Assembly (NCBI GenBank): GCA_017559985.1
Contig: JAFYPW010000036.1
Location: forward strand, 23,295-87,294
Direction of reading: 5' to 3'
DNA: 64,000 nt
DNA from: Oscillospiraceae bacterium
GTDB lineage: Bacteria; Bacillota; Clostridia; Oscillospirales; JAAYXM01
This document shows, piece by piece, positions 17,713 through 64,000 of the stretch. Below the pieces are notes generated by a model that searched no databases, had not been told where the DNA came from, and saw only the letters and a program-made list of their open reading frames with translations. The position numbers and the translations under genes were made by a program. How positions within the stretch are numbered: the first letter of the stretch is position 1; each line of letters begins with the position of its first letter.

Positions 17713-18174
17713 GTGAGGGCAGTAATAACAAGAGTAAAATCCGCAGAGGTTAAAATAGACGGGGCAACACACTCAAAGATAGGGAAAGGTCTTCTTATTC
17801 TCCTTGGTGTTTCCGTTAACGACAGCGCAGCTGATGCTGAATATCTCGCAAAGAAAATTTCAATGATGCGAATATTTGAAGATTCCGAAGAAAAGCTCAA
17901 TCTTTCCTGCTCGCAGGTAGGTGGAGCTATGATGGTAGTGTCAAACTTCACGCTGTATGCAAATACTCAGAAGGGTAACCGTCCGAGCTTTGTTGACGCG
18001 GCACGTCCTGAGCTTGCGCGCCCGCTTTATGAGTATTTCGTATCACTCTTAAAAGATGCAGGATATAAAACCGAAACGGGTGTGTTCGGGGCATATATGG
18101 AACTTGAATCGGTAAACGACGGACCTGTTACCGTTGTGATTGATACAGAGGATGTTTTCGGAGGAGAAAAATGA
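17713..18174 (+). CDS. dtd: D-aminoacyl-tRNA deacylase
   Basis: 153 aa with a GTG start after GGGGAGG. Motifs 'MRAVITRV', 'LLILLGV', 'SNFTLYA' and 'NDGPVT'. Confidence 0.93.
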   Translation: MRAVITRVKSAEVKIDGATHSKIGKGLLILLGVSVNDSAADAEYLAKKISMMRIFEDSEEKLNLSCSQVGGAMMVVSNFTLYANTQKGNRPSFVDAARPELARPLYEYFVSLLKDAGYKTETGVFGAYMELESVNDGPVTVVIDTEDVFGGEK

Positions 18175-18800
18175 CGGTTGAAACTCTACCGGTAGGATAT
18201 CTCGGGACAAATTGTTATATAGTACACGACGGCAAAGCTGCGGTCGTGATTGACCCGGGCGATGATGTGGAAAAAATCCTTGAAACAGTGCGGGGACTGT
18301 CGCTTTCCGTAAAATATATTTTTCTGACACACGCACATTTTGACCATACGCTTGCAGCGGCTGGAACAGCTGAAATGACAGGCGCGGTAATCTGCGCTGC
18401 GTCGGGTGAATTTGCAAGGCTTTCAGACCCTGTTCTTTCGGGAAGTGAAAGTTTTCCGTTTGCGAAGTTCATTCCGCTTTCGGTGGAATTCGAGCTCTCG
18501 GAGAAGACATCCTTAAAAGTTGGAGAGCTTTCTTTTGAATTTATTGAGACGCCCGGACATACGGAAGGAAGCATATGTATTGTTTGCGGAGACACGATTT
18601 TTGCGGGCGACACTCTTTTTTACGGCAGCTGCGGAAGGTGCGACCTGCCGGGTGGAAACTTTGAAGATATGATGAAATCACTAAAAAAATTGTATGAGCT
18701 TCCGGGCGATTTCAAGGTGCTTCCCGGTCACGGAGAGGCAACAACCCTTTCCCGTGAGCGTCGGTATAATCCATATATGGCAGAGGCGGTAAGAAATTGA
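18171..18800 (+). CDS. MBL-fold metallo-hydrolase (glyoxalase II-like)
   Basis: 209 aa with 'LTHAHFDH' (HxHxDH) and 'TPGHTEGS'. A 4-nt ATGA overlap links it to dtd. Confidence 0.85.
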   Translation: MTVETLPVGYLGTNCYIVHDGKAAVVIDPGDDVEKILETVRGLSLSVKYIFLTHAHFDHTLAAAGTAEMTGAVICAASGEFARLSDPVLSGSESFPFAKFIPLSVEFELSEKTSLKVGELSFEFIETPGHTEGSICIVCGDTIFAGDTLFYGSCGRCDLPGGNFEDMMKSLKKLYELPGDFKVLPGHGEATTLSRERRYNPYMAEAVRN

Positions 18801-47225: not shown

Positions 47226-47258
47226 TGTAAATAAGAGAGAAAAGCTTTGGAGGAGTAT

Positions 47259-50200: not shown

Positions 50201-50552
50201 AAATGCAATGGAGAGTGGTGAGGAGAAGGTTTATTTGCCGGTAAAGATAAACAAAAACGGAACGCTTTCGAAAACATCCTCCATCCTATCAAAGGAAGGC
50301 TTTGAAGCAGTCAAAACGCGAACAAGAGAAATTCTTGCAAGAATAGGTGACGAGCTATCCCGCGGCGAGATTGAGGCAAATCCGTATATCCATCGCGACT
50401 TTAATTCGTGCAAGTGGTGTGAGTATAAGGCTGTTTGCGCGTTTGATGAAAGAGCCGGCTGTGATAAGATGCGAGACCTTATAGAAGTTTCGGCAAAAGA
50501 AATTACGGGGGAAGGCGAGGTGAGCGACATTGGCGGAAATGAAATGGACTGA
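47259..50552 (+). CDS. addB: ATP-dependent helicase/nuclease subunit B (AddB)
   Basis: Start set at the ATG at 47259 after GGAGG. N-terminal P-loop 'GRIKSGKTS'; C-terminal RecB-type nuclease with Fe-S cysteines ('SCRYAYF', 'CKWCEYKAVC'). It sits directly upstream of and overlaps addA. Confidence 0.9.
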   Translation: MLHLVLGRIKSGKTSCIINELASRREEGSLLVVPERLSHSVERLLCKRCGNTVSSYAEVTSFRRLAARIKGEIGGVAAETVGDGKRMLLLYSAIKSVSPALSKLKKAATNPQRLSGVIESIDEFKAYGITPEELLSACGNVSKPLGEKLKDLAAIYAAYENGLGEEECDSYDELGFVAAMLRKEAFFKDKTVFLDGFSGFTKPEFDIIESAFVQARDVYITLELPGNASEGEENGIFDKAITTKKKLINLCEKNGIAWDETVLCKEKETTLSVLDEIIFNTDSKKYPCEGCITVARADGAFHECELSAAYIIDSIRKNGMRYRDFSVAITDEEKYIGICEMVYSRYGIPVYINRADDITQKPAVAIILSALSLIQKNFKPAAVMEYIKTGFSGICSKSLDIFENYLYMWEPRASEWKSGEDFTKNPLGFGVEENDEGRELLRIVNRVRRKISEPIKHLSGVVSKGCTGERAAAAIYDFINEINLPRRCDAYSYLSKLMGDFKTAQEYDGMLSVICDVIDSIGTVCGEDDITLDELCELFRITASKYTLSTIPATLDSVSVSSLARAEGERARVRIVLGANDGAFPKTADHAGILSDRDRGELSDCGIELAPALTERVFEDFRVIHNVLCTAEEALYISSDSSGKAGEESPEASAVLRIKDTFDGISGGFSLADARRCAKIPCFDESIARGELSDFWEMDAEEASRLMSVREAKSMKRGPIKKRENIEALFGNRIYLSASRAEKFISCRYAYFLRYGMKAFPRERAEISPIQAGDLLHYVLENVLKRLSKAGRFDSDYALALSEGIVREYVALRLGGEAVLSGRMDFLISRLEKTVRAALCDICSEIEKGEFRPRDFELEFSFGEDGLSPIEINGETSTVLFGGVIDRVDTYERDGELYFRVMDYKSGTKTFSLDESVNGIGMQMLLYMFALEDMAEKHYGRGAKPAGIMYIPLAQSFSQVRGEAAPRTRRAGVVINDTEIINAMESGEEKVYLPVKINKNGTLSKTSSILSKEGFEAVKTRTREILARIGDELSRGEIEANPYIHRDFNSCKWCEYKAVCAFDERAGCDKMRDLIEVSAKEITGEGEVSDIGGNEMD

Positions 50553-53500
50553 TGACCAGCTTTGTGCAATCAAAGCGCGCGGAAGCTCACTTCTTGTTTC
50601 TGCGGCCGCAGGCTCCGGAAAAACCGCAGTTCTTGTTGAAAGGCTTCTGCGGAGGATTGAAGAAGAGCGACTTGACATAACAGATTTTCTCGTAATTACA
50701 TACACAAAAGCCGCGGCATCTGAGCTTCGCCGGAAAATAGGCGATGCCCTTTATGAACGTATAGCAAAGAAACCGGGCGCGAAACACCTCAAACGGCAGA
50801 TTGCGCTTGTGGGAAGTGCGAGAATTTCAACCGTACATTCCTTCTGTACCTGGCTTTTGAGAAACTATGCCGAAAACGACGACATAGCAGGAGGATTTCG
50901 CGTTCTTGACGAGTCTGAGGCGGAGATGCTTCTTATGGACACGCTCTCCGAGATGATTGAGGAAAAGTATAACAGCAGGGATAAAGGCTTTCTTGCCCTG
51001 GCAGATTTCATGAGCGATTCGAGAAGCGATAAAAAGCTTTCTCCGGCAGTGCTTGAACTCTATCATAAAAGTATGAGCCATCCATACCCCGAAAAGTGGA
51101 TTTCGGAGGTGGGGCGATCTTACGAAATAGGCGATGTGAACAACATCAAAGAAACGCCTTGGGGAAAGGAAAGCTATCTCCGCGCGGAAAAACTCGTCTC
51201 CGAATGTGAAGAAATGGTTTGTCTTATGGAGAGTGATACTCAGAGAGTTGTGTCCTCGGGAGATTTATATGATGAGGTACTCCGGGAACTTCGACAGAGC
51301 ATAGGCAGGATAAAATCGTCTGACTGGGACGAGTTCCGGGAAAATGCCCGGAGCTTCTGCGTGCCGAAGCTTCCGTCGTCAAAGAATGTAGCAGACAAGA
51401 CCTTTACGGAACGAATCAAAGCTCTCACGAAGGTCATCAAAGAAAAAACAGGAGAGATTTCTGAAAAAATAATGCTTGCGGAGTCGGAGGTGCTACTTTC
51501 GGAAATACGCGCACTTTCGCCCATAATGAAAGAACTTTCCGAGCTTTCTGCCGAGCTTTATGAAAGGTTTGAGAAGGAAAAGCTTCGCTTGGGCACGCTT
51601 GACTATTCAGACCTTGAACATCAGACGATAAATCTGCTTATTGAAAGCTATGATGAAAAGAACGACACTGTAATACCCACAGAGCTTGCAGAGACCATAT
51701 CGGCAGACTTCTGCGAGATTCTTCTCGATGAATTTCAGGACAGCAATATTATTCAGGATATAATCTTCCGCGCGATTTCGCGCAAAGAGAAAAATATCGT
51801 GATGGTAGGAGATGTCAAACAGTCGATATACGGTTTCAGACTTGCTGATCCGTCAATCTTTATGAAAAAGTACAGAACCTTTGCTCCTTTTGCAGAAGCA
51901 AAGGGCGATGCTCCGCGGCGTGTAAACCTCTCGAAAAATTTTCGTTCACGTCGGGAAATTCTTGATGCGTCAAACTCTGTTTTTTCGCGGATAATGACGG
52001 AGGAACTCGGCGGTGTTGATTATAACGAGGAGCATATGCTTATCCCGCGGGACGAAATTCCGCATAGTGACCGCGAGGATATGAAGTGTGAGTTCTGCCT
52101 TATAGATGTAGATAAAAACGGTGAGGAGAGCGAGCTCTCGGCGCAGGCGCGCTTTACTGCTCGGAAAATCCGTGAAATGGTTGACTCGGGTTTTGAGGTA
52201 TGCGACAAAAACGGAAATTTAAGACCTGTTACATATCGTGACTTTGCAATTCTTTTGCGCTCGGTGTCAACGTCGGCGGAGGGTTATGAGGCGGCGCTTG
52301 AAGAATACGGAATTCCGTTTTTCGCCCCCATAAAAGGCGGGCTTCTGCAAAAAAATGAGGTCAATACAATCCTTTCCTATCTCACGGTTATAGATAACCC
52401 GACATCTGATATACCCCTGCTTGCAACACTTCGCTCACCGCTGTTCGCGTTTTCGGCAGACGAGCTTTGCGAAATGAGAATTGCAGGAAAGGGAACGCTT
52501 ATCTCCGCAATGGAGAAGCTTTCGCGTGAGGAGACGGAAACAGGCAGAAAATGCAGCGAATTTCTCAAAACTACGGCGTACCTTCGCGCGCGCAGCCGCG
52601 GTATGAGAATATCAAAGCTCATATGGGAGGTTTACAACAAAACGAATGCGCTCGGACTTTTCGGAGCGATGCCGTATGGCGAGGAGCGTCAGGAAAATCT
52701 CATAGAGTTTTATAAAAGCGCAGAAGGTCTTGAAACTCTCGGCTATTCAAACCTCTACAAGTTTCTTTCTCACATCTCTTCACTTGCCGAACGGGGGGGA
52801 GATATTGCGGTGTCGTCAGAAAACGCACATAATGCCGTGACAATTATGACGGTGCATAAGTCAAAGGGGCTTGAGTTTCCGGTTGTTTTTGTGGGCAATG
52901 CCTTTAAAAACTTCAATCTTAAAGATTTGCAGAAGGGTGTGCTGATTCACCCGAAACTCGGCGTCGGGCTTAATTTCCGCGACGAGGAGAAAAAGCTCGA
53001 ATGTTCAACGCTTATGCGCGAGGCGATAAAGCTTCGGCTTCTGGAGGATATGAAGAGTGAAGAAATGCGCCTTCTGTATGTCGCCCTCACTCGTGCCCGG
53101 GAGAAGCTGTTTATAACAGGTGCGAAAAAGGATGCGGCGCGTATGATACAAAAGGTTGCGGCTTCAAACTCATATGAAAAGCTTGACAAAGCAAACCTTG
53201 TATCAAGAAATGATGCTGAGCTGTGGTTTATGCTCCCTCTTTTCCGCACAATGACGGGAAGCGATATTTTTGCCTATGGTGACTACATAATAAACAGGGA
53301 TGAAGCTCTTGCAGGACTCTGTGCATATGTCGAGAAGGACGAGAGAGAAAAGGAAAGCCGCGTCAATGAAAAACAGACGGCAGACGGTGTCAGGGCGGTT
53401 CGTGAGCCGGAGTTTCTCGACTATAAATACAAAGAGGCAACGAGAACACCGTCAAAAATTACAGCGACGGGTATTCTTGCAGCAACGGAAAAGGGTGTGG

Positions 53501-54060
53501 AAATACGCCGCACGAGAGCGCCAAGACCGTCTTTTATGCTCAAAAAGGAGCTTTCTGCGGCAGAACGTGGAATTGCTCTTCATATGGCAATGCAATTCTG
53601 CGATTTTTCAAAATGCACCACGCGTGACGGGGCAAAGGCAGAGCTTTTAAGGCTTTATGAGCAGAAGTTTCTGACGAAAAGACAGTATGAAGCTGTGTCT
53701 GACGAGAAGATATATAATTTCGTGAATTCCGATATAGGCCGCGAGATGCTCTCGGCAAAAAAGATTTCGCGTGAATTCAAGTTCTCGCTCCTGCTTCCGG
53801 CAGAAGAGGTTTTCTCCGGCACGGAGCTTTGCGGTGAAGATGTTCTTGTTCAGGGCGTAATTGATATGTACTACGAAACTGATGAGGGCATAACAATCGT
53901 TGACTTCAAGACAGACAGAAAAAAGCCCTCCGGGAGAACACTTCTCAAATACAGTGAGCAGCTTTATACATATCGCCGTGCACTTTCCGAGATAACCGGA
54001 AAGACTGCCGCAAGAGCGCTTCTTTATCTTGTTATGACAAATGAATATATAGAAGTGTAA
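50530..54060 (+). CDS. addA: ATP-dependent helicase/nuclease subunit A (AddA)
   Basis: 1176 aa with UvrD/Rep helicase motifs ('VSAAAGSGKTAVLVER', 'LLDEFQDSN', 'VGDVKQSIYGFR', 'TVHKSKGLEFPVVF') and a C-terminal PD-(D/E)xK nuclease ('GVIDMYY..IVDFKTD'). Confidence 0.93.
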   Translation: MAEMKWTDDQLCAIKARGSSLLVSAAAGSGKTAVLVERLLRRIEEERLDITDFLVITYTKAAASELRRKIGDALYERIAKKPGAKHLKRQIALVGSARISTVHSFCTWLLRNYAENDDIAGGFRVLDESEAEMLLMDTLSEMIEEKYNSRDKGFLALADFMSDSRSDKKLSPAVLELYHKSMSHPYPEKWISEVGRSYEIGDVNNIKETPWGKESYLRAEKLVSECEEMVCLMESDTQRVVSSGDLYDEVLRELRQSIGRIKSSDWDEFRENARSFCVPKLPSSKNVADKTFTERIKALTKVIKEKTGEISEKIMLAESEVLLSEIRALSPIMKELSELSAELYERFEKEKLRLGTLDYSDLEHQTINLLIESYDEKNDTVIPTELAETISADFCEILLDEFQDSNIIQDIIFRAISRKEKNIVMVGDVKQSIYGFRLADPSIFMKKYRTFAPFAEAKGDAPRRVNLSKNFRSRREILDASNSVFSRIMTEELGGVDYNEEHMLIPRDEIPHSDREDMKCEFCLIDVDKNGEESELSAQARFTARKIREMVDSGFEVCDKNGNLRPVTYRDFAILLRSVSTSAEGYEAALEEYGIPFFAPIKGGLLQKNEVNTILSYLTVIDNPTSDIPLLATLRSPLFAFSADELCEMRIAGKGTLISAMEKLSREETETGRKCSEFLKTTAYLRARSRGMRISKLIWEVYNKTNALGLFGAMPYGEERQENLIEFYKSAEGLETLGYSNLYKFLSHISSLAERGGDIAVSSENAHNAVTIMTVHKSKGLEFPVVFVGNAFKNFNLKDLQKGVLIHPKLGVGLNFRDEEKKLECSTLMREAIKLRLLEDMKSEEMRLLYVALTRAREKLFITGAKKDAARMIQKVAASNSYEKLDKANLVSRNDAELWFMLPLFRTMTGSDIFAYGDYIINRDEALAGLCAYVEKDEREKESRVNEKQTADGVRAVREPEFLDYKYKEATRTPSKITATGILAATEKGVEIRRTRAPRPSFMLKKELSAAERGIALHMAMQFCDFSKCTTRDGAKAELLRLYEQKFLTKRQYEAVSDEKIYNFVNSDIGREMLSAKKISREFKFSLLLPAEEVFSGTELCGEDVLVQGVIDMYYETDEGITIVDFKTDRKKPSGRTLLKYSEQLYTYRRALSEITGKTAARALLYLVMTNEYIEV

Positions 54061-54065: not shown

Positions 54066-54097
54066 CACAGCACCGCCGTCGGTGCTGCGTTTTTTTT
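54066..54097. terminator. Bidirectional terminator between addA (+) and the CDF gene (-)
   Basis: Stem CAGCACCG (54068-54075) / CGGTGCTG (54080-54087), flanked by A7 and T8 runs. Confidence 0.75.
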
Positions 54098-55262
54098 ACA
54101 TAACCGTTCTGTCTATTGTGGGCTTTACTATGAATGACTGGTCGATTGCGGAAACCGCTGTTATGACCATATCGGAGACGATGCTGTCCGGCGCGGGGTG
54201 TGCAATAGGGACAACAACGTCAAACAGGATATTTTTCAAATCACCGTTTTTTATAACTCGGAAGTCGTGCATTGTGAAAGAAGCATCAAGCTTTTTTAAA
54301 GCATCGGCAACAAGTTTTGAAATACGCCGGACTTCTTCGTTTTCCACTTCGAGCGGGTCGAGATGAATTGTGATTTCAATTCCGAGCTTTTTCGAAAGCT
54401 CGCTCTCAATGCGGTCTATAAGCTCGTGGCTTTCGAGAATGTCTTCCGAAGAGGAAACTTCCGCATGGAGAGATGCGAAAACCTTTCCGGGCCCGTATTC
54501 GTGAACTATCAGGTCGTGTATACCGAGGATTTTGTCGTGTCCCGCGACCGTGCTGTATATGTCTCTGACAAGGTCCGGGTTTGGGGTTGTACCGAGAAGC
54601 GGGGTTAACGTGTCGCGGATTATTTTTATTCCCGACCACATAACAAATGCACTCACAAGAATGCCGATATATCCGTCAAGCGGGAAAGCTGTAAATTTTG
54701 AAAGAACTATTGAGATGAGCGTGACTGTTGTGGAGAACGCATCGGATATGCTGTCTGTTGAAACTGCCTTTATCGTCGAAGAGTTGATTTTCGTGCCGAG
54801 CTTTTTGTAAAAGAAGGCAAGCCAGAGCTTTGTTAAAACAGAGACGGCAAGACCTGTCGTTACAAAAACGGAGAAATTTGAGCTTCCCCTGGAAAAGATT
54901 TTTAAAAGTGACGTTTTTCCCACCTCAAAGCCTGCAAGAAGAACGAGGAAGGCGACGACAAGGCCGCAGATGTATTCAATCCTTCCGTGACCGAAAGGGT
55001 GTTCGCGGTCAGCAGGTTTCGAAGAAAGCTTAAACCCGATGATTGTAACGATGTTTGAAGCACAGTCGGATAAATTGTTGACGGCATCTGCCGTAACGGC
55101 AATGCTGTTTGCAAAGATGCCGAGTATGAATTTAAGCGCGGCAAGTATAATGTTGAATACAATGCCGACGGTGCTTGAAACAACACCGTAACGCGTTCTT
55201 ACAGTCGGGTTTGTGACATCTTCATAATTCTTTATGAAAAGGCGGATGATAAAATTTGTCAT
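54096..55262 (-). CDS. Cation diffusion facilitator (CDF) family divalent-metal efflux transporter
   Basis: 388 aa with six TM segments, 'SIAVTADAVNNLSD', 'HPFGHGRIEY', and a cytoplasmic C-terminal domain ('IHDLIVHEYG', 'FTMHDFR'). Confidence 0.88.
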   Translation of the reverse strand: MTNFIIRLFIKNYEDVTNPTVRTRYGVVSSTVGIVFNIILAALKFILGIFANSIAVTADAVNNLSDCASNIVTIIGFKLSSKPADREHPFGHGRIEYICGLVVAFLVLLAGFEVGKTSLLKIFSRGSSNFSVFVTTGLAVSVLTKLWLAFFYKKLGTKINSSTIKAVSTDSISDAFSTTVTLISIVLSKFTAFPLDGYIGILVSAFVMWSGIKIIRDTLTPLLGTTPNPDLVRDIYSTVAGHDKILGIHDLIVHEYGPGKVFASLHAEVSSSEDILESHELIDRIESELSKKLGIEITIHLDPLEVENEEVRRISKLVADALKKLDASFTMHDFRVIKNGDLKNILFDVVVPIAHPAPDSIVSDMVITAVSAIDQSFIVKPTIDRTVM

Positions 55263-55289
55263 CTGAAAATATCATATCCTAACAAAAAG

Positions 55290-56648
55290 TTATTTTACCA
55301 AAACTGCACGAAGATGGGGGAAAACATCCCTGCGCGAAAGTTTGCCCGGATTGATTGTAAAGGAATAGGTGGGGGCAAGGCTTCGCAAAAATGCAGAGAG
55401 AAGCTCTCCCGTAACCGTTGTTTTATACGAAAGCTTTTCGCTGTTATCACAGTTGATTATACCGAGCTCTGCTGCTTTGCAGAAAGCTATGAAATACGGA
55501 TGGTTCTCGCCCACACCGTATCTTTTTGCACACTCAGCCAAAAGAGCACCTGTCTCAAAGCCGGAATCAACAAATTTGCGGTAGGACGTGAGAATATCCT
55601 GCGGCGGAGTGCAGGTTACAACCAACTCACCAAATGTCATGGCACGCTCGGGGTGAAGAGTGTTGTTCTTGTAAGCGACGGTGAAACCTGCGTTTGCGAG
55701 AGCCTGTGCGTCTTCGTTCACACAGTCGGCAAACTGCGAAAGCGAAAGAAGCTCGGATACAGAAATGACATCATAGCCGTGTTTTTTGAGCAGGTCGAGC
55801 TGAAGCGGAAGAGCTTCCGCAACGGGCGTATGGCGTGACATACTGTACCCGTCCTTCTGGAAAATTATCTGTCCGTTCAAAGAATCGGGGTCTTCGGAGA
55901 GGGCACGCGAAATCGGCTCTACCATAGCATCGATGTCTTTTTTGAAATCGCCCGTCGAGGGAAGCCATCCGCCGCCGTCAAAGCTTGCGGCGAGGTAGTT
56001 ATACCCTGCATAGCGATACGCATCGTAAGATGTCTTGCCGTCCGGGATTTTGTCAACATAGTGCGGAGGGCGCGAAAGGCGCATTTTATAACCGTGTTCT
56101 TCAAGGAGAAGGCTGTCAAGCTCCATAATGTCGGAGATGACTTCGTGAATATTGTTAAAACACGCGCGGGCACCGTAAACAAGCTTTAAATGGCCAAAGA
56201 GAATGTGGCGGTAGCCGTGGTTTGTGATTTCGTGACCGCCTGAAAGTATGCGGGAGATAAGGTCGGACTTGTTTTTTGCACCTGCGCACAAATCGCGGTT
56301 TATGTCCGGGTAGTGGTCATACCTGACGCCACCCCAGGAAAAAGAGCCGTGGACACCCGCCTCGTCGGGATAGTTGTGCTCTGTCGTGCCTATAACATCA
56401 AATGTGCCCTTTGCTCCGAATTTTTCGAGTGTCTTCAAGAGGTGGAGCGTTAAGCCGTCATCGGAAATCTTCGGGTTTGTCTCCGTGTCGGTAGGACCGT
56501 CGTCAAATGTCATTGCACATACACGACGGTCAGTGAGCGGGAAAACGCGTTCAATGCGGCGAACCGGTGTGATGTATTCACAGTCGCGGCTTTTCTGGTA
56601 TTCTTTGAGAATGTGTTTTGCACGTCTTGCAAGGTCGTAAAGTATCAT
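55290..56648 (-). CDS. NodB-fold polysaccharide/carbohydrate deacetylase-family protein with an extra C-terminal domain of about 150 aa; no signal peptide
   Basis: 452 aa with NodB motifs 'CAMTFDDGP', 'GHEITNHGYRH' and 'RPPHY'. The N-terminus 'MILYDLARRAKHILKEY' is not a signal sequence. Confidence 0.8.
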   Translation of the reverse strand: MILYDLARRAKHILKEYQKSRDCEYITPVRRIERVFPLTDRRVCAMTFDDGPTDTETNPKISDDGLTLHLLKTLEKFGAKGTFDVIGTTEHNYPDEAGVHGSFSWGGVRYDHYPDINRDLCAGAKNKSDLISRILSGGHEITNHGYRHILFGHLKLVYGARACFNNIHEVISDIMELDSLLLEEHGYKMRLSRPPHYVDKIPDGKTSYDAYRYAGYNYLAASFDGGGWLPSTGDFKKDIDAMVEPISRALSEDPDSLNGQIIFQKDGYSMSRHTPVAEALPLQLDLLKKHGYDVISVSELLSLSQFADCVNEDAQALANAGFTVAYKNNTLHPERAMTFGELVVTCTPPQDILTSYRKFVDSGFETGALLAECAKRYGVGENHPYFIAFCKAAELGIINCDNSEKLSYKTTVTGELLSAFLRSLAPTYSFTINPGKLSRRDVFPHLRAVLVK

Positions 56649-57436
56649 TATTTATTCTCCTCCGGCGTTGTGTCTATATAATGACCTTCATATTTTTTGC
56701 AGAAAACAGATTTTAATAACATATATAGGTGAACAAAGTAACTTTTTAAAAGTCTGCCGTAAAGTTTTTTGCAACGGTACATATATCTTTTCCCGCGCAA
56801 AACGTCAAACGGAGATGCAGCACCCGCAAAAACGCGCCCGCGACCGGAAAGAAGCTCGGCCTTGAGTTTGTCTTCAAAATCGGGCTCGGACATAGCATAT
56901 TCCCGCAGGTCGCACTCCCAGAAGGTTGTGCCAACTTCTTCGGGAATATGCGCATCGCTTCCTGCTGAAAAAGGCAATCCCAATTTTTTACACAGTTTTA
57001 AAGCGTCACGGTTTGCGTTTGTCTTTCGTGAGTGTACGACTCGTGAATTGAAAATTTCTATTCCGTCGATTTCGTCAAAAAGGGCATCGGGACGGGGACG
57101 GAAAGGAGAAAACGGATGCGCAAGAAAAACCAGCGCGCCCTGGTCATGTGCCGCTTTTACGATATCGCGCCAGTAAAACCTGCCGTATTCGTCACGCGAG
57201 AGGGCTTCGTTTACGTGCTCTTTCTGGAAATAGACTATAAGATGTCCGACATCTGTTGAGAATTCACAGGCGTGGATTATGTAGAAGTTTTCGCGTTCGC
57301 GATGGTGGTGGAACGCGTTGTGGTCAGCGATGGCAACGCCTGAAAGTCCTGCGCGGCGGGCGGCTTCCACAAGGTCGTCAGACCTCATCCTTGAATCATA
57401 TGATAGATTTGTGTGAACGTGTAAATCGAATTTCAT
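56648..57436 (-). CDS. PHP-domain metal-dependent phosphoesterase
   Basis: 262 aa with 'MKFDLHVHTNLSYDS', 'AIADHN', 'LAHPF' and 'GSDAH' PHP metal-ligand motifs. Its TAA overlaps the deacetylase ATG (TAATG). Confidence 0.85.
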   Translation of the reverse strand: MKFDLHVHTNLSYDSRMRSDDLVEAARRAGLSGVAIADHNAFHHHRERENFYIIHACEFSTDVGHLIVYFQKEHVNEALSRDEYGRFYWRDIVKAAHDQGALVFLAHPFSPFRPRPDALFDEIDGIEIFNSRVVHSRKTNANRDALKLCKKLGLPFSAGSDAHIPEEVGTTFWECDLREYAMSEPDFEDKLKAELLSGRGRVFAGAASPFDVLRGKRYMYRCKKLYGRLLKSYFVHLYMLLKSVFCKKYEGHYIDTTPEENK

Positions 57437-57441
57437 ATAAA

Positions 57442-58599
57442 TTACCTCACGATACTGTCGGTTTTCTTTAACGCCTGCTTAAAGTATTGGAGTGATGAGC
57501 GGATGTCGGATATATCAAAAACACCGTCGGAAACGAAAGGGTTTAAAAGTCCCGAAAGAAAAGAAACGGCAAATTTCAATTTATGCTCACTCTTTTTCAG
57601 ATATGCAGGAAAAGAGAGAAGGTCCTGAATTATAAATCTCATCTTGTGGCCTGTTTTGTAGCTTGGCGAGAACGAAGAAAAAGGCTTTGCAAGCTCTCCG
57701 CGGGCGGCGCGGTAAAGGGCAAATGGAATGTTGCAGCCTGAATTTGGCGCGAGGGCAGAGCTTCCCCAGAAACGTGGGTTGATTTCCATAAGGTAAAATC
57801 CGGTTTCGGGAGTGCCTTTAAACTCAACCATTGCAACGCCTTCCCAATGCAATGTGCGCAAAAGCTTTATCGCATATTCTGCAAGTTGCGGAGAGTCAAC
57901 GCTCTCACAGAAGCACGACGGACCGCCGCTTGACGGATATTCGCGTATTCTGCGGTGGCAGAAAACTTCGAGCGGCTCGGAGTTTTTGTCAAAGACGCAG
58001 GAAACGCCGTAGCCATCGCCGGTGATATATTGCTGAACGAGAATTTCCTGACCGTATTGTTCAAAAACCGTATAGGTTTTTATGAATTCTTCCTTTGAGG
58101 AGACAATGCTGTATCTCTTTTCGGGCGGAAGCCCCAGCATCTCACCGAGCGGGAGCTTTATTACAGAAGGGTAAGTTATTCTCTGTGAAAGGGAGAGGAC
58201 ACTCTCGCCGTCTGCCTTGAATGTTGTTTCCGGAACGGGAACGCCTGCTTCTTTTGCAAAGGGGATGAGGCGCGATTTGTTGTTTGCAAGTTCGATTGAT
58301 GAGAACGGCGGCAGCGCGCAATCACAAAAGCCGAGAACTTCGTCACGGTTTTCACACAGCGTAAGGAGGGTGGAAATGCCGACCGGTATCACAACCGGGC
58401 GCTCATCAAGATCAGAACACAAAGACGAAAGCTCTGAAAGGAACAGTGCGGTATCTGTATCTGCGTCGGGGAGCAGAACATTCCTTTTTGAATATTTAGA
58501 ATAAAAACCCAATGCCGCCTTTGTATCACATACGTCTCTCTCGGTGCAAACAACAGGGACACCGCTCTTTCCGAGAGCACGGATGGCAGGAAGACTCAT
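57442..58599 (-). CDS. ATP-grasp ligase (COG3919-like 'predicted ATP-grasp enzyme'); the true start is probably upstream at a non-canonical codon (ATT at 58635)
   Basis: 385 aa from the first ATG. ATP-grasp core 'YPSVIKLP', 'LVQQYITG' and 'VAMVEFK..FYLMEINPRFWGS'. The frame stays open to the TGA at 58650-58648 and encodes 'INSAIVTDVRYR' with no ATG/GTG/TTG. Confidence 0.8.
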   Translation of the reverse strand: MSLPAIRALGKSGVPVVCTERDVCDTKAALGFYSKYSKRNVLLPDADTDTALFLSELSSLCSDLDERPVVIPVGISTLLTLCENRDEVLGFCDCALPPFSSIELANNKSRLIPFAKEAGVPVPETTFKADGESVLSLSQRITYPSVIKLPLGEMLGLPPEKRYSIVSSKEEFIKTYTVFEQYGQEILVQQYITGDGYGVSCVFDKNSEPLEVFCHRRIREYPSSGGPSCFCESVDSPQLAEYAIKLLRTLHWEGVAMVEFKGTPETGFYLMEINPRFWGSSALAPNSGCNIPFALYRAARGELAKPFSSFSPSYKTGHKMRFIIQDLLSFPAYLKKSEHKLKFAVSFLSGLLNPFVSDGVFDISDIRSSLQYFKQALKKTDSIVR

Positions 58600-58670
58600 G
58601 CGGTAGCGTACATCCGTTACAATAGCAGAATTAATGACAGATACACCTCACCTATTATATATTGATTTTA

Positions 58671-58699
58671 ATTATATAACATATGTAAGAACTTATCAA
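58671..58699 (-). promoter_or_regulatory. Near-consensus sigma-A promoter for the ATP-grasp/PHP/deacetylase operon (minus strand)
   Basis: On the minus strand: TTGATA (58699-58694), 17-nt spacer, TATAAT (58676-58671). Confidence 0.55.
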
Positions 58700-58827
58700 G
58701 TGATGAGATATTGAAAAAAACTATATCTTACATAGTATTATTCAAAAATAGAATATGAAGCTACAAACTCTTGTTTTTTTCGCTGAAATATTATATATTT
58801 TTATTATAAAATGAGGAGGTTTATGTT

Positions 58828-59892
58828 ATGGAAAAAGTAAAAGTGCTTCTTATAGGTGCAGCGTTCTCTGCTGACTTGCATGCTGAGGGTTATGCAAGAT
58901 GCCGCGATGTTGCAGAACTCGTCGCTATCTGCGATAAAGACACAAGCCGTGTAAAAGACCTTGCTGACAGGTACGGCTTTACTGATTACCAGGTTTATGA
59001 TGATATGTTCAAGGCTATTGATGAAGTAGAGTGTGATGTTGTTGACATCTGCCTGCCCAACTTCCTTCACGTTGAAGCGGCACTCCGCGCATTTGCAAAG
59101 GGACGCCACGTCATCAGCGAAAAGCCGCTTGCTACAACGGTAGAAGATGCGGAAAAGATGATAAACGCAGCAGAGGCAGCAGGAAAAAAGCTCTACTATG
59201 CAGAAGACTGGCTCTTTGCGCCGGCTCTCAACCGTGCTCTTGAAGTTATAAATGAAGGCGCAATAGGAAAGCCGATGTTCGTCCGTGCACGCGAGTGCCA
59301 CTGTGGCTCACACTCACCGTTTGCACAGACAATCAAGTTCTGCGGCGGAGGTTCTATGGTACATCTCGGCGTTCATCCGGTATGCTTTATGCTCGCGCTC
59401 AAAAACAATCGTTGGACAGAAGTTGTTGCTATGACATCCGGCGGCGGAGAGGAAAATCTCTGGCACAAGACAATGGAAGGCGAAGACTGGGGTGCAGCTC
59501 TTATGCGTTTTGAAGACGGCACAACAGCGCTTTTAGAGGCAAACTACGTCACAACAGGCGGTATGGAAGACGTTATCGACTTCTACGGCGACAATGGTTG
59601 TCTCCACGTTGACCTTACTTTCTCATCGGCATTGAACCTTTACTCAATTCCGGGTGCATCATACACTGTTGAGAAGGCAGAGGTAACAACAGGCTGGTCA
59701 AGACCGGCAGTTGACGAGAAGTTCAACCTCGGCTATGTAAACGAAATCCGTCACTTTATGGAATCTGCCCGCGACAACAAGGACGCAAAGGTAGGTCTCC
59801 GCGGTATAGACGGTTACGAAGCAATCCGTGTTATCAACCTTATCTACAAATCAGCCCGTGAGGGAATTGCAATAAAGAACGATAGACTTTAA
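58828..59892 (+). CDS. Gfo/Idh/MocA-family NAD(P)-dependent oxidoreductase
   Basis: 354 aa with Rossmann N-terminus 'VKVLLIGAAFSADLHAEGY', 'LPNFLH' and the 'VISEKPLA' family motif. SD GAGGAGG lies 8 nt upstream. Confidence 0.88.
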   Translation: MEKVKVLLIGAAFSADLHAEGYARCRDVAELVAICDKDTSRVKDLADRYGFTDYQVYDDMFKAIDEVECDVVDICLPNFLHVEAALRAFAKGRHVISEKPLATTVEDAEKMINAAEAAGKKLYYAEDWLFAPALNRALEVINEGAIGKPMFVRARECHCGSHSPFAQTIKFCGGGSMVHLGVHPVCFMLALKNNRWTEVVAMTSGGGEENLWHKTMEGEDWGAALMRFEDGTTALLEANYVTTGGMEDVIDFYGDNGCLHVDLTFSSALNLYSIPGASYTVEKAEVTTGWSRPAVDEKFNLGYVNEIRHFMESARDNKDAKVGLRGIDGYEAIRVINLIYKSAREGIAIKNDRL

Positions 59893-59934: not shown

Positions 59935-62577
59935 ATGACAGGCAATTTCAATCTTCCGGTAGAGATAGCCGGCGTAAAGTTCCGCAACCCGTTCTATGTA
60001 GCATCGGGTCCGACCACAAAATCAGTAGAACAGCTCAAAAAAATCGAAGAATGCGGCTGGGGTGCAGCTTCAATCAAGCTCACAATCGACCCGGCTCCGT
60101 ATATCAACCGCGTTCCGCGTTATGCAATTTTCAAGGACCGCAACGCTCTTTGCTTCACAGTTGAGAAGCGCCTTAAATTTGAAGAAGGCTTAAAACTCAT
60201 GCGCGATGCAAAGAAAGAACTCAAAGGCGACCTCAAGCTTATGGCAAACATCACATATGCAGGTGATAAGGGCGTAGCAGGCTGGGTAAACATGGCAGTT
60301 GAGTTTGAAAAAGCAGGTGCTGACATCATCGAGCTTAATATGTGCTGCCCGAATATGTCATTTAACCTCCAGCTTTCCCAGGGCGACGACAACGCTTCAA
60401 AAATCAAGACGGGCGCAAGCCTTGGTCAGAACGGTGATGCGGTTGCAGAAATCGTTCGCGAAATCAAGAAGTCAATCTCAATTCCGCTCTTCGTTAAGCT
60501 CACTCCTGAGGGCGGAAGAATTGCACAGATTGCAACAGCTCTTTATGCTGCCGGCGCAGATGCTGTCGGTGGTACATCGAACCGTATGGCTCTTCCACCG
60601 ATCAACCTTGATCATCCGGAAAAGGCTCCGTATCATCTCCAGGACGAGATTTCAATGTCCTGCCACTGCGGTTCATGGGTAAAGCCTCTTGCACTCCGTG
60701 ATACATACGAAATCAGAAAAGTTAACGGTCCCGAGCCGAAGATTATGATGGCTGGCGGTGTCAGAAACTGGCGCGATGCTTGCGAAATGTTCATGGCAGG
60801 TGCAGACCTTGTTGGTATCTGCTCAGAAACACTTATCTCGGGTTACGGCTTCATTGGTGATCTTATCGACGGAGTCCGCGACTTTATGGATAGCCACGGT
60901 TACAGCAACACACGTGAAATGCGTGACCTTATCCTCCCGCACGTCCGCACAGCAGCAGACGTTACACTCTACAAGGGTTATTCTCACGTAAAAGGAACTC
61001 TTGCAGCACCGTGTAAGTCAGCTTGCCCTGCAAACGTTCCGGCTCAGGCATATGTCAATATGATTGCCCAGAAGAACTTCAAGCGCGCATATGAGCTCAT
61101 CGTCGGCGCGGCACCGCTTATGGGTATCTGCGGCGTTGTCTGCTCACATCCGTGCGAACTCTCCTGCACACGCGGCATAACAGGCCGTTCAATCCAGATC
61201 CGTGACCTTAAACGCTTTACTCTTGAACAGGCAAAGAAGAACGGCTGGAAGCCTGACCTCGTCAAGGCAAAGGCAAACGGCAAGAAGATTGCTGTTATCG
61301 GTTCCGGTCCGGCAGGTATCTCTGCTGCATTCTACCTTGCAAAGGCAGGTTACGGCGTAACCGTATTTGAAAAAGAAAATTATCTCGGCGGTATGCTCCG
61401 CTACGCTATACCGAACTTCCGTCTTGACAAGAGCCTCATCGACGATGAAATCGCAATTCTCAAAGAGCTTGGTGTTGAGTTCAAGACAGGCGTTATGTTC
61501 GGAAAGGATATTACGGCAGAAAGCCTTAAAAAGGACGGATTCGACTCCGTATTTATGGGCGTTGGCGCTCAGTCCGGCAGACTTCCGGGCATTCCGGGCG
61601 AGGATGCAAAGGGCGTATTCAATGCTGTTGATTTCTTAAAGGATGTATATGACGGCAAGAAGATTTCTATCGGTGATGACGTAGTTATCCTCGGCGGCGG
61701 CTTCACAGCTGTTGACGCAGCACGTACAGCACGTCGACTCGGTGCAAAGAATGTTTACATTGCTTACCGTCGTACACGCGACGAGATGCCGGCAACTGCG
61801 GAAGAAATCGCAGAGGCAGAGGCAGAGGGCGTAAAGATTATGTACCTTGTTGCTCCGACAGAGATTGTCGCTGCAAACGGCAAGGTTTCAGCAATCAAGA
61901 TGACAACTCAGGTTCTCGGCGAGTCTGACACAAGCGGCAGACGTCGTCCTGAGGCAGTTTGCGGTGCAGAGTTCACACTCAAATGCGACACGGTTGTTGC
62001 AGCTATCGGTCAGGTTCCGTGCAAGTGCGCAACAGACGGTATCAAGACAACAAGAAGTGGCATGATTGCAGTTAACGAGTGGAACGCAGTTGACGAGTTC
62101 ATCTACGCAGGCGGTGACGCAGTTGAGGTCCGCAACATCATCTCTGCTGTTGCAGACGGACGCCGTGCGGCATACTGCATCGACTTCAAGCTTACAGACG
62201 GTAACCCGAACGTTGAGCTTGTAAACATCGCAGACACGGTTGACCCGTATGCTGTTCTCCGTCGCAACCCCTACTTCACAGACAACGGTGCAGTTGACCT
62301 TGATACAAAGGCAGGCGCAGAAAGAGTCAAGAACTTCGACACATTCCGCCGCGTAATGACAGAGGATGAGGCTGTCAAGGAAGCATCCCGCTGCCTCAAA
62401 TGCGGATGCGGCGAAGGTTGCCAGCTCTGTAAGACAATATGCACAGACTTTGCGGTTGACATTGTTGCTGATGACACAATGCAGATCAACAAAGACAAGT
62501 GCGTAGCCTGTGGTATGTGCTACAACCGTTGCCCGAACGGCAACATCGAGATGATTGATCTCGGAATCAAAGCATAA
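59935..62577 (+). CDS. Multidomain flavo-iron-sulfur oxidoreductase: DHOD/DPD-type FMN barrel, then GltD/PreT-like FeS plus FAD/NAD(P)H module, then C-terminal ferredoxin-type Cys clusters
   Basis: 880 aa. Residues 1-340 carry 'VKFRNPFYVASGP', 'IELNMCCPN', 'PLFVKLTPE' and 'MMAGGVRNWRDACEMFMAGADLVGICS'. Residues 350-760 carry 'CKSACPANVP', 'GICGVVCSHPCELSCTRG', 'KIAVIGSGPAGISAAFYLAKAGYGVTVFE' and 'VVILGGGFTAVDAARTARRLGA'. The C-terminus carries 'CLKCGCGEGCQLCKTIC' and 'CVACGMCYNRCP'. Confidence 0.85.
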   Translation: MTGNFNLPVEIAGVKFRNPFYVASGPTTKSVEQLKKIEECGWGAASIKLTIDPAPYINRVPRYAIFKDRNALCFTVEKRLKFEEGLKLMRDAKKELKGDLKLMANITYAGDKGVAGWVNMAVEFEKAGADIIELNMCCPNMSFNLQLSQGDDNASKIKTGASLGQNGDAVAEIVREIKKSISIPLFVKLTPEGGRIAQIATALYAAGADAVGGTSNRMALPPINLDHPEKAPYHLQDEISMSCHCGSWVKPLALRDTYEIRKVNGPEPKIMMAGGVRNWRDACEMFMAGADLVGICSETLISGYGFIGDLIDGVRDFMDSHGYSNTREMRDLILPHVRTAADVTLYKGYSHVKGTLAAPCKSACPANVPAQAYVNMIAQKNFKRAYELIVGAAPLMGICGVVCSHPCELSCTRGITGRSIQIRDLKRFTLEQAKKNGWKPDLVKAKANGKKIAVIGSGPAGISAAFYLAKAGYGVTVFEKENYLGGMLRYAIPNFRLDKSLIDDEIAILKELGVEFKTGVMFGKDITAESLKKDGFDSVFMGVGAQSGRLPGIPGEDAKGVFNAVDFLKDVYDGKKISIGDDVVILGGGFTAVDAARTARRLGAKNVYIAYRRTRDEMPATAEEIAEAEAEGVKIMYLVAPTEIVAANGKVSAIKMTTQVLGESDTSGRRRPEAVCGAEFTLKCDTVVAAIGQVPCKCATDGIKTTRSGMIAVNEWNAVDEFIYAGGDAVEVRNIISAVADGRRAAYCIDFKLTDGNPNVELVNIADTVDPYAVLRRNPYFTDNGAVDLDTKAGAERVKNFDTFRRVMTEDEAVKEASRCLKCGCGEGCQLCKTICTDFAVDIVADDTMQINKDKCVACGMCYNRCPNGNIEMIDLGIKA

Positions 62578-62648: not shown

Positions 62649-63467
62649 ATGAGTAATATGTTTTCACTTGAAGGAAAAATCGCAGTAGTAACAGGTGCGG
62701 GCGGCGTTCTCTGTGCAGAGATTTCAAAAGGACTTGCACGTGCAGGTGCAAAGGTTGCACTTTTGGACCTTCGTCTTGATATGGCAGAAAAAGCAGCAGA
62801 TGCTATCCGTGCAGAAGGCTTTGAAGCAGCTGCTTTTGAGTGTAATGTTCTTGAAAAGGCAAGTATTGAGAAGGCAAAGGACGAAGTTCTTGCAAAGTTC
62901 GGCAAGGTTGATATTCTCTTAAACGGCGCAGGCGGAAACCACCCGAAGGGTTCAACAAGTCCGGAAATGTCATTCTTTGACATCCCGCAGGAAGCTGTTC
63001 AGTGGGTGTTCAACCTCAACATCGTCGGAACTATTCTTCCGACACAGGTTTTCGGTAAGCTCTTTGCAGAACAGAATTCAGGCTGTGTTGTAAACATAAG
63101 CTCAATGTCGGCCTACCACCCGCTCACACGCACTGTTGCATATTCCGCAGCCAAGGCAGGCGTAACAAACTTCACAGAGTGGATGGCAGTTCACTTCAAT
63201 CAGGAATATTCAAAGAATATCCGCGTCAATGCTATCGCTCCGGGATTCCTTCTCACACAGCAGAACTACTATCTTATGGTAGATGAGAAGACAGGTGGCA
63301 ACACACCGCGTGCAGAAAAGGTTCTCGCAAAGACTCCGATGGATCGCTTCGGAAAACCTGAAGAGCTTGTAGGCGGCGTTATTTATCTCTGCTCTGATGC
63401 CGCATCATTTGTTAACGGAACAGTTCTCGCCATCGACGGTGGATTCAACGCATATTCAGGAGTTTAA
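62649..63467 (+). CDS. SDR-family oxidoreductase (mannonate/gluconate-5-dehydrogenase-like subgroup)
   Basis: 272 aa from the ATG at 62649 ('MSNMFSLEGKIAVVTGAGGVLC'). 'NGAGGN', catalytic 'SSMSAY..YSAAKAG' and 'NAIAPGF' motifs. Confidence 0.88.
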   Translation: MSNMFSLEGKIAVVTGAGGVLCAEISKGLARAGAKVALLDLRLDMAEKAADAIRAEGFEAAAFECNVLEKASIEKAKDEVLAKFGKVDILLNGAGGNHPKGSTSPEMSFFDIPQEAVQWVFNLNIVGTILPTQVFGKLFAEQNSGCVVNISSMSAYHPLTRTVAYSAAKAGVTNFTEWMAVHFNQEYSKNIRVNAIAPGFLLTQQNYYLMVDEKTGGNTPRAEKVLAKTPMDRFGKPEELVGGVIYLCSDAASFVNGTVLAIDGGFNAYSGV

Positions 63468-63469: not shown

Positions 63470-64000
63470 ATGAAACTGTACATTAACGGCAAAATCCATT
63501 CAATGGATGCTTCCGGAAGTGTATATTCCGCGCTTTGTGAAGAGGACGGAAAGATTTTGGGACTGGGAGATGAAAAAGACCTCATCTCCCGGTATCCTTG
63601 CGCTGAAACGGTCGACCTTCAAGGTAAGACAGTTATTCCGGGAATAATCGATACACATGCGCATCTTTTTGCCGCGGCACTCAGCGAAAAAACGCGTAAG
63701 CTGTTTATTCCAAAAAGCGTGAGCGAGCTTCTTTCTGATCTGAAAGAACGCGTTAAAAGTCTTCCGGAAGGCGAGTGGGTCATCTATAAAAACACATATG
63801 TGTTAAGACTTTCCGAACTGCGTTTTCCTACACGCGAGGAGCTTGATGCGGCAGCACCGAAAAATCCGGTTGTTGTGGACGGATATTATGCTTCCCAGCT
63901 CAATACCGTGGCACTCAATATGATAGATTTTGAGAAACTGCCAAAAGGTGCCGGCGTTGAATATAACGACGACGGCAGTATGACGGGGCTCTTGAAGTGC
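63470..64000 (+). CDS. Amidohydrolase-family metal-dependent hydrolase (YtcJ/Amidohydro_3-like), 5' part, continuing past the window end
   Basis: ATG at 63470, 2 nt after the SDR stop, and open to base 64000. 'MKLYINGKIHSMD..GKILGLG..DLQGKTVIPGIIDTHAHLF' and 'PTREELDAAAPKNPVVV' are typical of this family. Confidence 0.8.
   Translation, partial: MKLYINGKIHSMDASGSVYSALCEEDGKILGLGDEKDLISRYPCAETVDLQGKTVIPGIIDTHAHLFAAALSEKTRKLFIPKSVSELLSDLKERVKSLPEGEWVIYKNTYVLRLSELRFPTREELDAAAPKNPVVVDGYYASQLNTVALNMIDFEKLPKGAGVEYNDDGSMTGLLKC

Follow-up and report, generated by a model that had tools for sequence, protein, structure and literature searches.

Introduction

Enzymes of the dihydropyrimidine dehydrogenase (DPD) and PreTA type are known from nucleobase breakdown, a process by which gut bacteria also inactivate fluoropyrimidine drugs; the established role of YgfK is in the breakdown of urate. 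In the present study we analyse a protein built from related parts, encoded at 59935..62577 (+) in a 64,000-nucleotide stretch of the genome of an Oscillospiraceae bacterium (assembly GCA_017559985.1, contig JAFYPW010000036.1, positions 23,295 to 87,294 of the forward strand; this whole stretch is called the window, and nucleotide positions refer to it). The protein joins a flavin mononucleotide (FMN) barrel of the DHODH/DPD/PreA family to a GltD/PreT-like electron-input module, which on the alignments presented below is itself circularly permuted, and to a ferredoxin-like tail. Together with its homologues it forms a well-defined, fairly widespread and uncharacterised enzyme family with a testable pathway hypothesis.

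Among the described systems, DPD/PydA (PDB 1H7W, 1GT8) and the Escherichia coli pair PreT and PreA possess an FMN barrel that belongs to the same family and has its catalytic cysteine in the motif N-x-(S/C)-C-P-(H/N), and a GltD-like flavin adenine dinucleotide (FAD)/NAD(P)H module, the window protein being 32% identical to PreT. Presumably the chemistry is shared too, with NAD(P)H driving the reduction of a carbonyl-conjugated C=C bond. The Fer4_20 domain of DPD is contiguous and its domain order canonical, whereas the window protein is barrel-first with a split Fer4_20; furthermore, the window family has no neighbours of the Pyd pathway and falls below the cut-off of the PreA model. YgfK, characterised in 2025 as the yanthine reductase of the reductive uric acid pathway, depends on NAD(P)H and carries 4Fe-4S clusters, an FAD site and, in the N-terminal region, an FMN site; its reduction of 2,8-dioxopurine (yanthine) with NAD(P)H has been seen only when coupled to the adjacent amidohydrolase SsnA (PMC12507026). 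No description of the fusion family or of its operon was found in the literature, including reviews and surveys of Fe-S flavoenzymes; its parts, chemistry and domain order all have precedents, namely in DPD, PreTA, PydAc, YgfK, PRK12771 and StnC.

Results

Overall architecture

The gene is a single uninterrupted ATG-to-stop open reading frame (ORF) of 880 codons, as a preliminary description made from the DNA letters alone had stated. A protein of 100% identity is present in public data, where its sole label is 'FAD-dependent oxidoreductase [Oscillospiraceae bacterium]', and full-length homologues of about 880 residues fall into more than 120 clusters at 59-84% identity to the window protein. 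Pfam places DHO_dh at residues 7-318 (7.7e-24), Fer4_20 at residues 358-437 (7.7e-19), Pyr_redox_2 at residues 451-742 (4.6e-33) and Fer4 at residues 850-871, with Fer4 and Fer4_21 together spanning 828-873. These E-values and the more than 120 full-length homologue clusters rule out chance. The domain scan, which the preliminary description had proposed, confirms the families and the order given there, barrel, GltD/PreT-like module and ferredoxin-like tail, and this order is not the canonical one of DPD. The motifs quoted in that description are likewise all present in the translation (VKFRNPFYVASGP at 14-26, IELNMCCPN at 132-140, PLFVKLTPE at 184-192, CKSACPANVP at 360-369, GICGVVCSHPCELSCTRG at 397-414, KIAVIGSGPAG at 451-461 and VVILGGGFTAVDAARTA at 583-599), with the correction that the first tail motif contains six cysteines and not five, the tail reading C820xxC823xC825xxxC829xxC832xxxC836 and then C856xxC859xxC862xxxC866P.

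An AlphaFold2 (AF2) model of the window protein has a mean predicted local distance difference test score (pLDDT) of 82, rising above 90 in the FAD and NAD(P)H binding domains (residues 451-742; 61285..62160 (+)). The model supports the predicted folds, not the wiring of the clusters. From its sequence, the window protein would be a soluble iron-sulfur flavoenzyme of the DPD/PreTA/YgfK type, with the cofactor content that those homologues imply.

A split and permuted electron-input module

Compared with E. coli PreT by BLASTP, the window protein aligns in two segments whose order is swapped relative to PreT: residues 358-753 correspond to PreT 32-406 (32% identity, 2e-52) and residues 801-829 to PreT 7-38 (E 0.004), the latter segment carrying the RCLxC motif ('AVKEASRCLKCG' versus 'AIKEASRCLLCHD'). 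The Fer4_20 profile is split as well. Residues 358-437 (61006..61245 (+); cysteines 360, 364, 399, 403, 407 and 411, and K426) match only profile positions 30-112, and residues 797-831 (62323..62427 (+)), which include EASRC820LKC823, match positions 1-38 with 23 bits (E 7e-5, just below the gathering score). The canonical RCxxC-x4-C-x3-CP motif is cut in the window protein between its second and third cysteines, the 'PC360xxxC364P' half lying directly after the barrel and the 'RC820LKC823' half after the FAD/NAD(P)H domains, from where it runs into the ferredoxin-like domain. The swapped PreT segments and the split profile match show that the GltD/PreT-like module of the window protein is itself circularly permuted.

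If A1 denotes the RCLxC helix, A2 the rest of Fer4_20, B the FAD/NADPH domains, C the barrel and D the ferredoxin tail, the order is C-A2-B-A1-D in the window protein versus A1-A2-B-C-D in DPD. The one is not a rotation of the other, so the circular permutation of DPD envisaged in the preliminary description does not hold; the permutation lies within the PreT-like module.

The A2-B-A1-D unit also exists by itself. NCBIfam PRK12771 ('NAD(P)-binding protein', NF009410, 566 positions) is matched at positions 33-563 by residues 343-874 with a score of 476.5 bits versus a cut-off of 516, the window protein bearing an extra 340-residue barrel. Over residues 334-867, the best matches of known structure are the large subunits of NfnABC (9BOV, 9N5U) and StnABC (8OH5), with 34-35% identity to the StnC/NfnABC GltD-like domain, including the RCLxCGC segment behind the FAD domain. 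In contrast to the window protein, PRK12771 and StnC/NfnABC have no FMN barrel and deliver electrons to modules of the NuoG/HydBC type, not to an organic substrate; the StnC/NfnABC module is a linear, non-bifurcating NADPH input (PMC10482914).

In E. coli YgfK (1032 residues), positions 444-949 align to residues 337-867 of the window protein (BLASTP, 31% identity, E 1e-54), and the Fer4_20 of YgfK is likewise truncated (Pfam, profile positions 25-107 only). An N-terminal FMN domain, a truncated Fer4_20, the FAD/NAD(P)H domains, an RCLxC segment and a ferredoxin-like tail follow each other in YgfK in the same order as in the window protein. A tentative remark in the preliminary description, that YgfK-type proteins have a comparable layout, was thus correct, the FMN domain being first in YgfK too (PMC12507026), and the barrel-first layout is not unique and is less exceptional than that description supposed. 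YgfK differs in its N-terminal domain of about 440 residues, which is not recognised as DHO_dh and to which an hhalign comparison of the barrel profile (YgfK 1-445, a single template sequence and hence low sensitivity) gave a probability of 1.2% and E 0.044, and in an entirely distinct gene neighbourhood. Filing the window protein as YgfK was rejected, since TIGR03315 gives 314.4 bits versus a cut-off of 835.3 and is matched only at positions 443-934, that is, in the input module.

Since the A2-B-A1-D unit is already free-standing (PRK12771) and recurs in StnC/NfnABC and YgfK, the simplest origin is the fusion of a tail-less PreA-like barrel ahead of such a protein, and not the insertion of a PreT module between the PreA barrel and its tail that had been put forward at first. 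We considered the tail as PreA's own ferredoxin tail, as it is weakly similar to that of the PreA-like protein P0137 (33.5 bits), but rejected this given the match of residues 343-874 to free-standing PRK12771. A canonical small subunit of the NfnB/GltD kind was also discarded: RCLKC lies behind the FAD/NAD(P)H domains and TIGR01316 scores 323.8 versus a cut-off of 471.75.

The C-terminal 2x[4Fe-4S]-ferredoxin-like domain (residues 825-873; 62407..62553 (+); Fer4, Fer4_21 and Fer4_7 matches) holds cysteines 825, 829, 832, 836, 856, 859, 862 and 866, all eight invariant in 60 family members. Over the whole protein, 16 Fe-S cysteines and K426 are invariant in these members, and by count and homology they fit four predicted [4Fe-4S] clusters. 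The putative assignment of individual ligands follows in part their arrangement in the DPD structure. K426 aligns with StnC K170, which ligates the cluster next to the FAD (PMC10482914), and DPD has four [4Fe-4S] clusters (PMC7332683), the same number as predicted here.

The FMN barrel and its putative substrate pocket

The best solved relative of the barrel (residues 7-318; 59953..60888 (+)), the presumed substrate site, is the barrel of pig DPD, residues 532-836 (phmmer, 4.6e-20). In the phmmer alignment to 1gt8, 1h7x and 7m31, C138 stands in the column of the DPD C671A and C671S mutants, that is, of the catalytic Cys671, and the active-site motif N135-M-C-C138-P-N140 (60337..60354 (+)) is invariant in the 60 members and in 46/46 full-length genomic copies, 42-46 of which also retain the other family motifs. 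The same alignment equates the FMN-binding and catalytic residues K48, N135, C138 and N216 with K574, N668, C671 and N736 of DPD. K48, N135, C138, N140, K188 and N216 are shared with both DPD and PreA and are invariant in the 60 members.

Two further positions depart from this pattern. DPD N609, together with the matching asparagine of PreA, is replaced by E77 in an invariant FTxEKR loop, and DPD T737 is replaced by R217, both replacements being invariant; N609 and T737 of pig DPD are residues that contact the pyrimidine. Additional invariant basic residues of the barrel are R59, R62, K78, R79, K250 and R255, and it is this surplus of invariant arginines and lysines that suggests an anionic substrate. 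Identities as PreA (NCBIfam NF006183, 183.5 bits versus a cut-off of 335) and as class 1 PyrD (NF005574, 121.6 versus 269; TIGR01037, 112.8 versus 270; E77 at the N609-equivalent Asn) were rejected.

The barrel loops 56-77, 138-157 and 232-249 (about 60100-60165, 60346-60405 and 60628-60681) have pLDDT values below 50 and are at the same time among the most conserved of the family, with invariant residues in P55-R79, C138-N144/T159-Q165 and H234-C243. They are probably ordered by a ligand or cofactor, in the manner of the mobile Cys loop of DPD.

Distribution and relatives

A pattern scan of 185,579 species genomes, one genome per species, answers the question of spread raised in the preliminary description: relatives occur in 392 of them. 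The carriers are mainly metagenome-assembled genomes (MAGs) of Oscillospiraceae and other Clostridia, with a few Bacteroidales MAGs, from gut, rumen and digester samples; as isolates they include two strains of Ruminiclostridium cellobioparum, and Acetivibrio sp. MSJd-27. The family is recognisable by its signature NMCCPNM, FTxEKR and GGTxNR and by its conserved operon partner.

A scan with the barrel over 1.84 billion representatives returned only 78 proteins at E 1e-30. In order of closeness these are the fusion family, the stand-alone proteins P0133, P0137 and P0138 with a PreA-like tail (43-51% identity), and, more distantly, ordinary PreA/PydAc-like proteins of about 400 residues (27-37%) and single chains with DPD order (about 30-32%). 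P0133, P0137 and P0138 resemble the window family in the motifs NMCCPNM, FTxE and xNRLG. With the ferredoxin-dependent clostridial DPD PydAc (PMC7332683), which acts on uracil, and UacX, which acts on yanthine, these three are PreA-like barrels 31-51% identical to that of the window protein; they differ from it in having their own PreA-type ferredoxin tail right behind the barrel and no FAD/NAD(P)H module. P0133, P0137 and P0138 probably rely on ferredoxin or on an unlinked partner. The gene for P0133 (locus L086, 2869-4158), which is 51% identical and has the same motifs, has a Gfo/Idh/MocA gene upstream. P0137 (L083, 8001-9218) is surrounded by sugar ABC transporter, FmdA/AmdA amidase, SIS, LarA-like and aldehyde dehydrogenase genes, and the genomic contexts of P0138 and P0132, on short contigs or among unrelated neighbours, were uninformative.

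Some complete members have only 791-846 residues (L061, L071, L058, L047, L064 and related loci). They retain the start of the barrel and the entire Cys-rich tail and, since both ends are intact, the 35-90 absent residues must lie within or just behind the FAD/NAD(P)H module; in L061 and L071 the stretch before the tail, at the end of that module, differs from the window protein. In L029, a Bacteroidia MAG, the fusion gene (10001-12651) is split into ORFs of 634 and 249 residues and a 2-keto-3-deoxygluconate (KDG) kinase gene (17621-18656) into ORFs of 181 and 180 residues, which looks like assembly frameshift errors and not like real pseudogenes.

The operon and its conserved neighbourhood

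In the window the fusion gene belongs to a four-gene operon on the forward strand with intergenic gaps of 42, 71 and 2 bp. A Gfo/Idh/MocA-family dehydrogenase (58828..59892 (+)) ends 42 bp upstream of the fusion gene, which is followed by a short-chain dehydrogenase/reductase (SDR) ketoreductase (62649..63467 (+), 272 residues from ATG, with an alternative GTG start at 62595) and by an Amidohydro_3-family metal hydrolase (63470..64000 (+), Pfam PF07969, 4.6e-18), of which the N-terminal 176 residues are seen before it runs off the window; full-length orthologues of about 532 residues occupy the equivalent position in related loci. The SDR belongs to the 'D-mannonate oxidoreductase' subfamily PRK08277 of NCBIfam (375.5 bits, over the cut-off of 281). 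The Gfo partner lies under the cut-off of all named NCBIfam models, the best being UDP-GlcNAc 3-dehydrogenase, IolG and levoglucosan dehydrogenase, and among solved structures it comes closest to glucose-fructose oxidoreductase (105 bits), with inositol, C-glycoside and levoglucosan dehydrogenases ranking next.

For the comparison of loci, ORFs were called in 79 loci and three others and the neighbours were clustered, the counts covering 77 loci except where another total is given. A Gfo/Idh/MocA dehydrogenase gene stands immediately upstream on the same strand in 63/77 loci, and also in L013 and L017 after correction of the ORF calls. At positions +1/+2 an NAD(P)-dependent dehydrogenase is found in 39 of 61 loci (SDR in 15, 2-Hacid_dh in 12, Ldh_2 in 11 and Mannitol_dh in 1). 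Creatininase-family hydrolases occur in 30 loci and Amidohydro_3 in 10, never both in one locus, and with other amidohydrolase types present in a few loci, metal amidohydrolases of at least four families recur beside the fusion gene. NagB-like proteins occur in 22 loci, and KDPG aldolase, KDG kinase, gluconokinase-like FGGY, Mannitol_dh and LarA-like genes and TetR or LacI regulators are recurring neighbours. No dihydropyrimidinase/hydantoinase or beta-ureidopropionase was among the recurrent neighbour clusters of the 77 loci, and XdhD, SsnA, HyuA, YgeX and YgeY were absent from the window and from these loci.

Discussion

Proposed reaction

The succession of a core dehydrogenase, the Fe-S flavoenzyme, a second dehydrogenase and a metal hydrolase fits a common logic in which oxidation of a hydroxyl yields an enone, its C=C bond is reduced, the product is reduced again or oxidised further, and the ring is finally opened. 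On this basis we favour, with moderate confidence, an NAD(P)H-dependent ene-reductase whose substrate is not a pyrimidine but a cyclic enone, lactone or lactam derived from a carbohydrate or cyclitol. In the mechanism we propose, NAD(P)H would reduce the FAD (residues 451-742), from which electrons would pass to the two [4Fe-4S] clusters of the split Fer4_20, with C364/C403/C407/K426 and C820/C823/C360/C411 as putative ligands by homology to DPD and StnC, then to the two clusters of the C-terminal ferredoxin-like domain (eight cysteines, 825-866) and finally to the FMN of the N-terminal barrel. At this site the enzyme would reduce a carbonyl-conjugated C=C bond, with the hydride coming from FMN N5 and the proton from C138. 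The substrate would most likely be an anionic cyclic enone or unsaturated lactone or lactam of the carbohydrate or cyclitol kind and not a pyrimidine; the E77 and R217 replacements and the sugar-type neighbours argue for the latter point, in agreement with the preliminary description, which had held that the substrate need not be a pyrimidine. The enone may arise when the co-transcribed Gfo/Idh/MocA dehydrogenase oxidises an adjacent hydroxyl. Two further enzymes may then process or open the product, a ketoreductase of the SDR, 2-Hacid_dh or Ldh_2 type and a metal hydrolase, either creatininase-like or, in the window, of the Amidohydro_3 family, after which the carbon may enter hexonate/KDG-type catabolism. 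It is from these homologies and neighbours that we infer which way the reaction runs, what class of substrate it uses and in what order the pathway proceeds.

Several considerations weigh against this proposal. The sequence does not separate reduction from desaturation; the alignment column of E77 sits in a gapped loop; and AF2 confidence is lowest precisely in the family-specific barrel loops 56-77, 138-157 and 232-249. The neighbourhood counts come from crude ORF calling, and many of the loci are related MAGs and non-independent. The accessory genes differ by lineage and might not all serve one pathway, and the recurrent amidohydrolase, NagB-like, SIS and aminotransferase genes could indicate a nitrogen-containing substrate.

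A broader reading, which we advance only tentatively, is that about 400 species possess an anaerobic catabolic pathway not described before, with the fusion protein as its signature enzyme. For this pathway a DPD-type Fe-S flavoenzyme would have been recruited from nucleobase metabolism, and it would reduce or desaturate a ring derived from a carbohydrate, a cyclitol or an amino sugar. As part of the same tentative reading, the Gfo/Idh/MocA dehydrogenase would first activate the ring and the metal hydrolase would open it afterwards. By chemical analogy, inososes, 3-dehydroshikimate-like enones, ascorbate-like unsaturated lactones and N-acyl amino-sugar acid derivatives are candidate substrates that may fit the neighbours.

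Alternative explanations

The alternative that survives best, unlikely as we hold it to be, is an oxidative one, in which the enzyme is a desaturase that takes the place of IolM in an inositol-type pathway. An IolG-like Gfo dehydrogenase would yield scyllo-inosose, the barrel would abstract H2 from the C-alpha/C-beta bond, forming the enol of a 1,3-diketone (3-dehydro-scyllo-inosose), and an IolN-like creatininase-family hydrolase would open this ring, leading on to 5-keto-L-gluconate and the hexuronate/KDG route, as in Thermotoga maritima. In the Thermotoga-type route the creatininase-family IolN opens the diketo-inositol (PMC5931981). The likeness of that route (IolG, IolM and IolN to 5-keto-L-gluconate and the KDG pathway) to the loci studied here is one of operon logic only, with a Gfo/Idh/MocA enzyme, a second redox enzyme, a creatininase-family hydrolase and hexuronate/KDG enzymes, and its second redox enzyme differs in being a plain alcohol dehydrogenase, simple and NAD-dependent, at the equivalent step. 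The creatininase-like neighbour does match the NCBIfam IolN model (3e-20) and the Gfo neighbour the IolG model (2e-30), but the scores stay far from the cut-offs (IolN, NF041098, 72.5 versus 245; IolG, TIGR04380, 105.7 versus 355), for which we did not file them under these names, and the creatininase-like protein scores higher for creatininase and MftE. Moreover, the lineage of the window has Amidohydro_3 and not the creatininase-like gene, no inositol transporter or other iol genes were seen, and all characterised enzymes with this NAD(P)H/FAD/Fe-S input module (DPD, PreTA, YgfK) are reductases in vivo (PMC7332683, PMC12507026).

Still less probable is a YgfK/UacX-like reductase that dearomatises a purine (yanthine/oxopurine) or another N-heterocycle, the uphill reduction being pulled by the neighbouring amidohydrolase. 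The overall layout is that of YgfK, with 31% identity over 530 residues, and in Clostridioides difficile UacX, a DHO_dh protein, fills the role of YgfK with the Amidohydro_3 protein UacY in its cluster (PMC12507026), a pairing of families that the window operon repeats; the recurrence of metal amidohydrolases from at least four families would also suit such coupling. Against it, TIGR03315 is matched with 314 versus 835 in the input module only, the N-terminal domains have no detectable relation (hhalign probability 1.2%), and the 77 loci, which are without the genes XdhD, SsnA, HyuA, YgeX and YgeY, contain sugar kinases and aldolases instead.

It is very improbable that the protein is a genuine dihydropyrimidine dehydrogenase whose domains have been rearranged and which reduces uracil or thymine before an amidohydrolase opens the ring, as happens in the Pyd pathway. 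The appeal of this reading lies in the best solved match of the barrel, which is pig DPD (4.6e-20), in the retention of the catalytic cysteine and of three FMN/substrate residues, in a predicted cofactor inventory equal to that of DPD and in an amidohydrolase gene two genes downstream in the window. Against it stand the invariant replacement of N609 by E77 and of T737 by R217, the PreA score (183.5 versus 335), and the 77 loci, where there are no Pyd genes and the conserved partners are Gfo/Idh/MocA and sugar-acid enzymes.

Barrels of class 1A DHODH are able to reduce fumarate. An electron-transfer or bifurcating device of the Nfn/Stn kind, or an NAD(P)H:fumarate-type reductase with the barrel as electron sink and no specific catabolic pathway, is the least probable of all. 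In its favour, subunits of the bifurcating complexes NfnABC and StnABC provide the nearest solved matches to residues 334-867, some loci continue with Ldh_2 and malic-enzyme genes, and NfnAB-like pairs stand just upstream in L051, L013 and L017. Against it, the module serves in StnC as an NADPH input that does not bifurcate (PMC10482914), the loci have no conserved HydBC/StnAB or NfnA partner, and the tight Gfo/Idh/MocA pairing and the invariant family-specific pocket residues favour a dedicated organic substrate.

Implications

If the ene-reductase proposal is true, the range of DPD-type machinery also takes in carbohydrate-like substrates, and this in Oscillospiraceae and other Clostridia that are abundant and for the most part uncultured. 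The family also shows that the GltD-like input module is a circularly permuted cassette joined to at least three acceptors, the barrel of the window protein, the FMN domain of YgfK and NuoG-like domains, and as such it informs how Fe-S wires are rebuilt. The family definition is of use for annotation, such proteins being labelled at present only 'FAD-dependent oxidoreductase' or 'glutamate synthase beta subunit-like', and the cultured carrier Ruminiclostridium cellobioparum renders the question of function directly testable.

Further observations on the loci and the window

An NfnA-like (DHODB_Fe-S_bind) and an NfnB-like protein (463-465 residues, with a contiguous RCxxC...CP motif) are encoded as a pair just upstream in L051 (1507-3794), L013 (2055-4290) and L017; the pair could supply NADPH to the fusion enzyme or be a coincidence. 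The entries of 463-465 residues in the fusion-protein cluster are ordinary NfnB-like proteins. In the Bacteroidales loci L029 (5562-8443) and L037 (3210-4547), one or more proteins of 445 residues are encoded just upstream of the Gfo/Idh/MocA gene, in the position occupied elsewhere by the creatininase-like hydrolase; they resemble neutral/alkaline ceramidases in the N-terminal domain only (PF04734, 3.5e-17).

An AT-rich divergent intergenic region precedes the operon of the window (58600..58827) and is the probable operon promoter region: five of the seven forward-strand promoter-like matches of the scanned region lie at 58634-58812, with match counts not above those of shuffled controls. No convincing terminator was found among the four operon genes, the match counts again not exceeding shuffled controls.

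On the other side of this region, reverse-strand genes at 54096-58599 encode an ATP-grasp protein (57442-58599), a PHP/CehA-like metallohydrolase (56648-57436), a polysaccharide-deacetylase-like protein of 452 residues (55290-56648) and a cation-diffusion-facilitator transporter (54096-55262), and the four keep their order beside the operon in the closest MAGs (L005, L007-L011, L014-L016). Beyond them, at 47247-54060 (+), two genes with overlapping ends encode an AddB-like protein (ADDB_N plus PD-(D/E)XK, 1101 residues) and an AddA-like protein (UvrD helicase plus nuclease, 1176 residues), which are an ordinary helicase-nuclease pair of double-strand-break repair.

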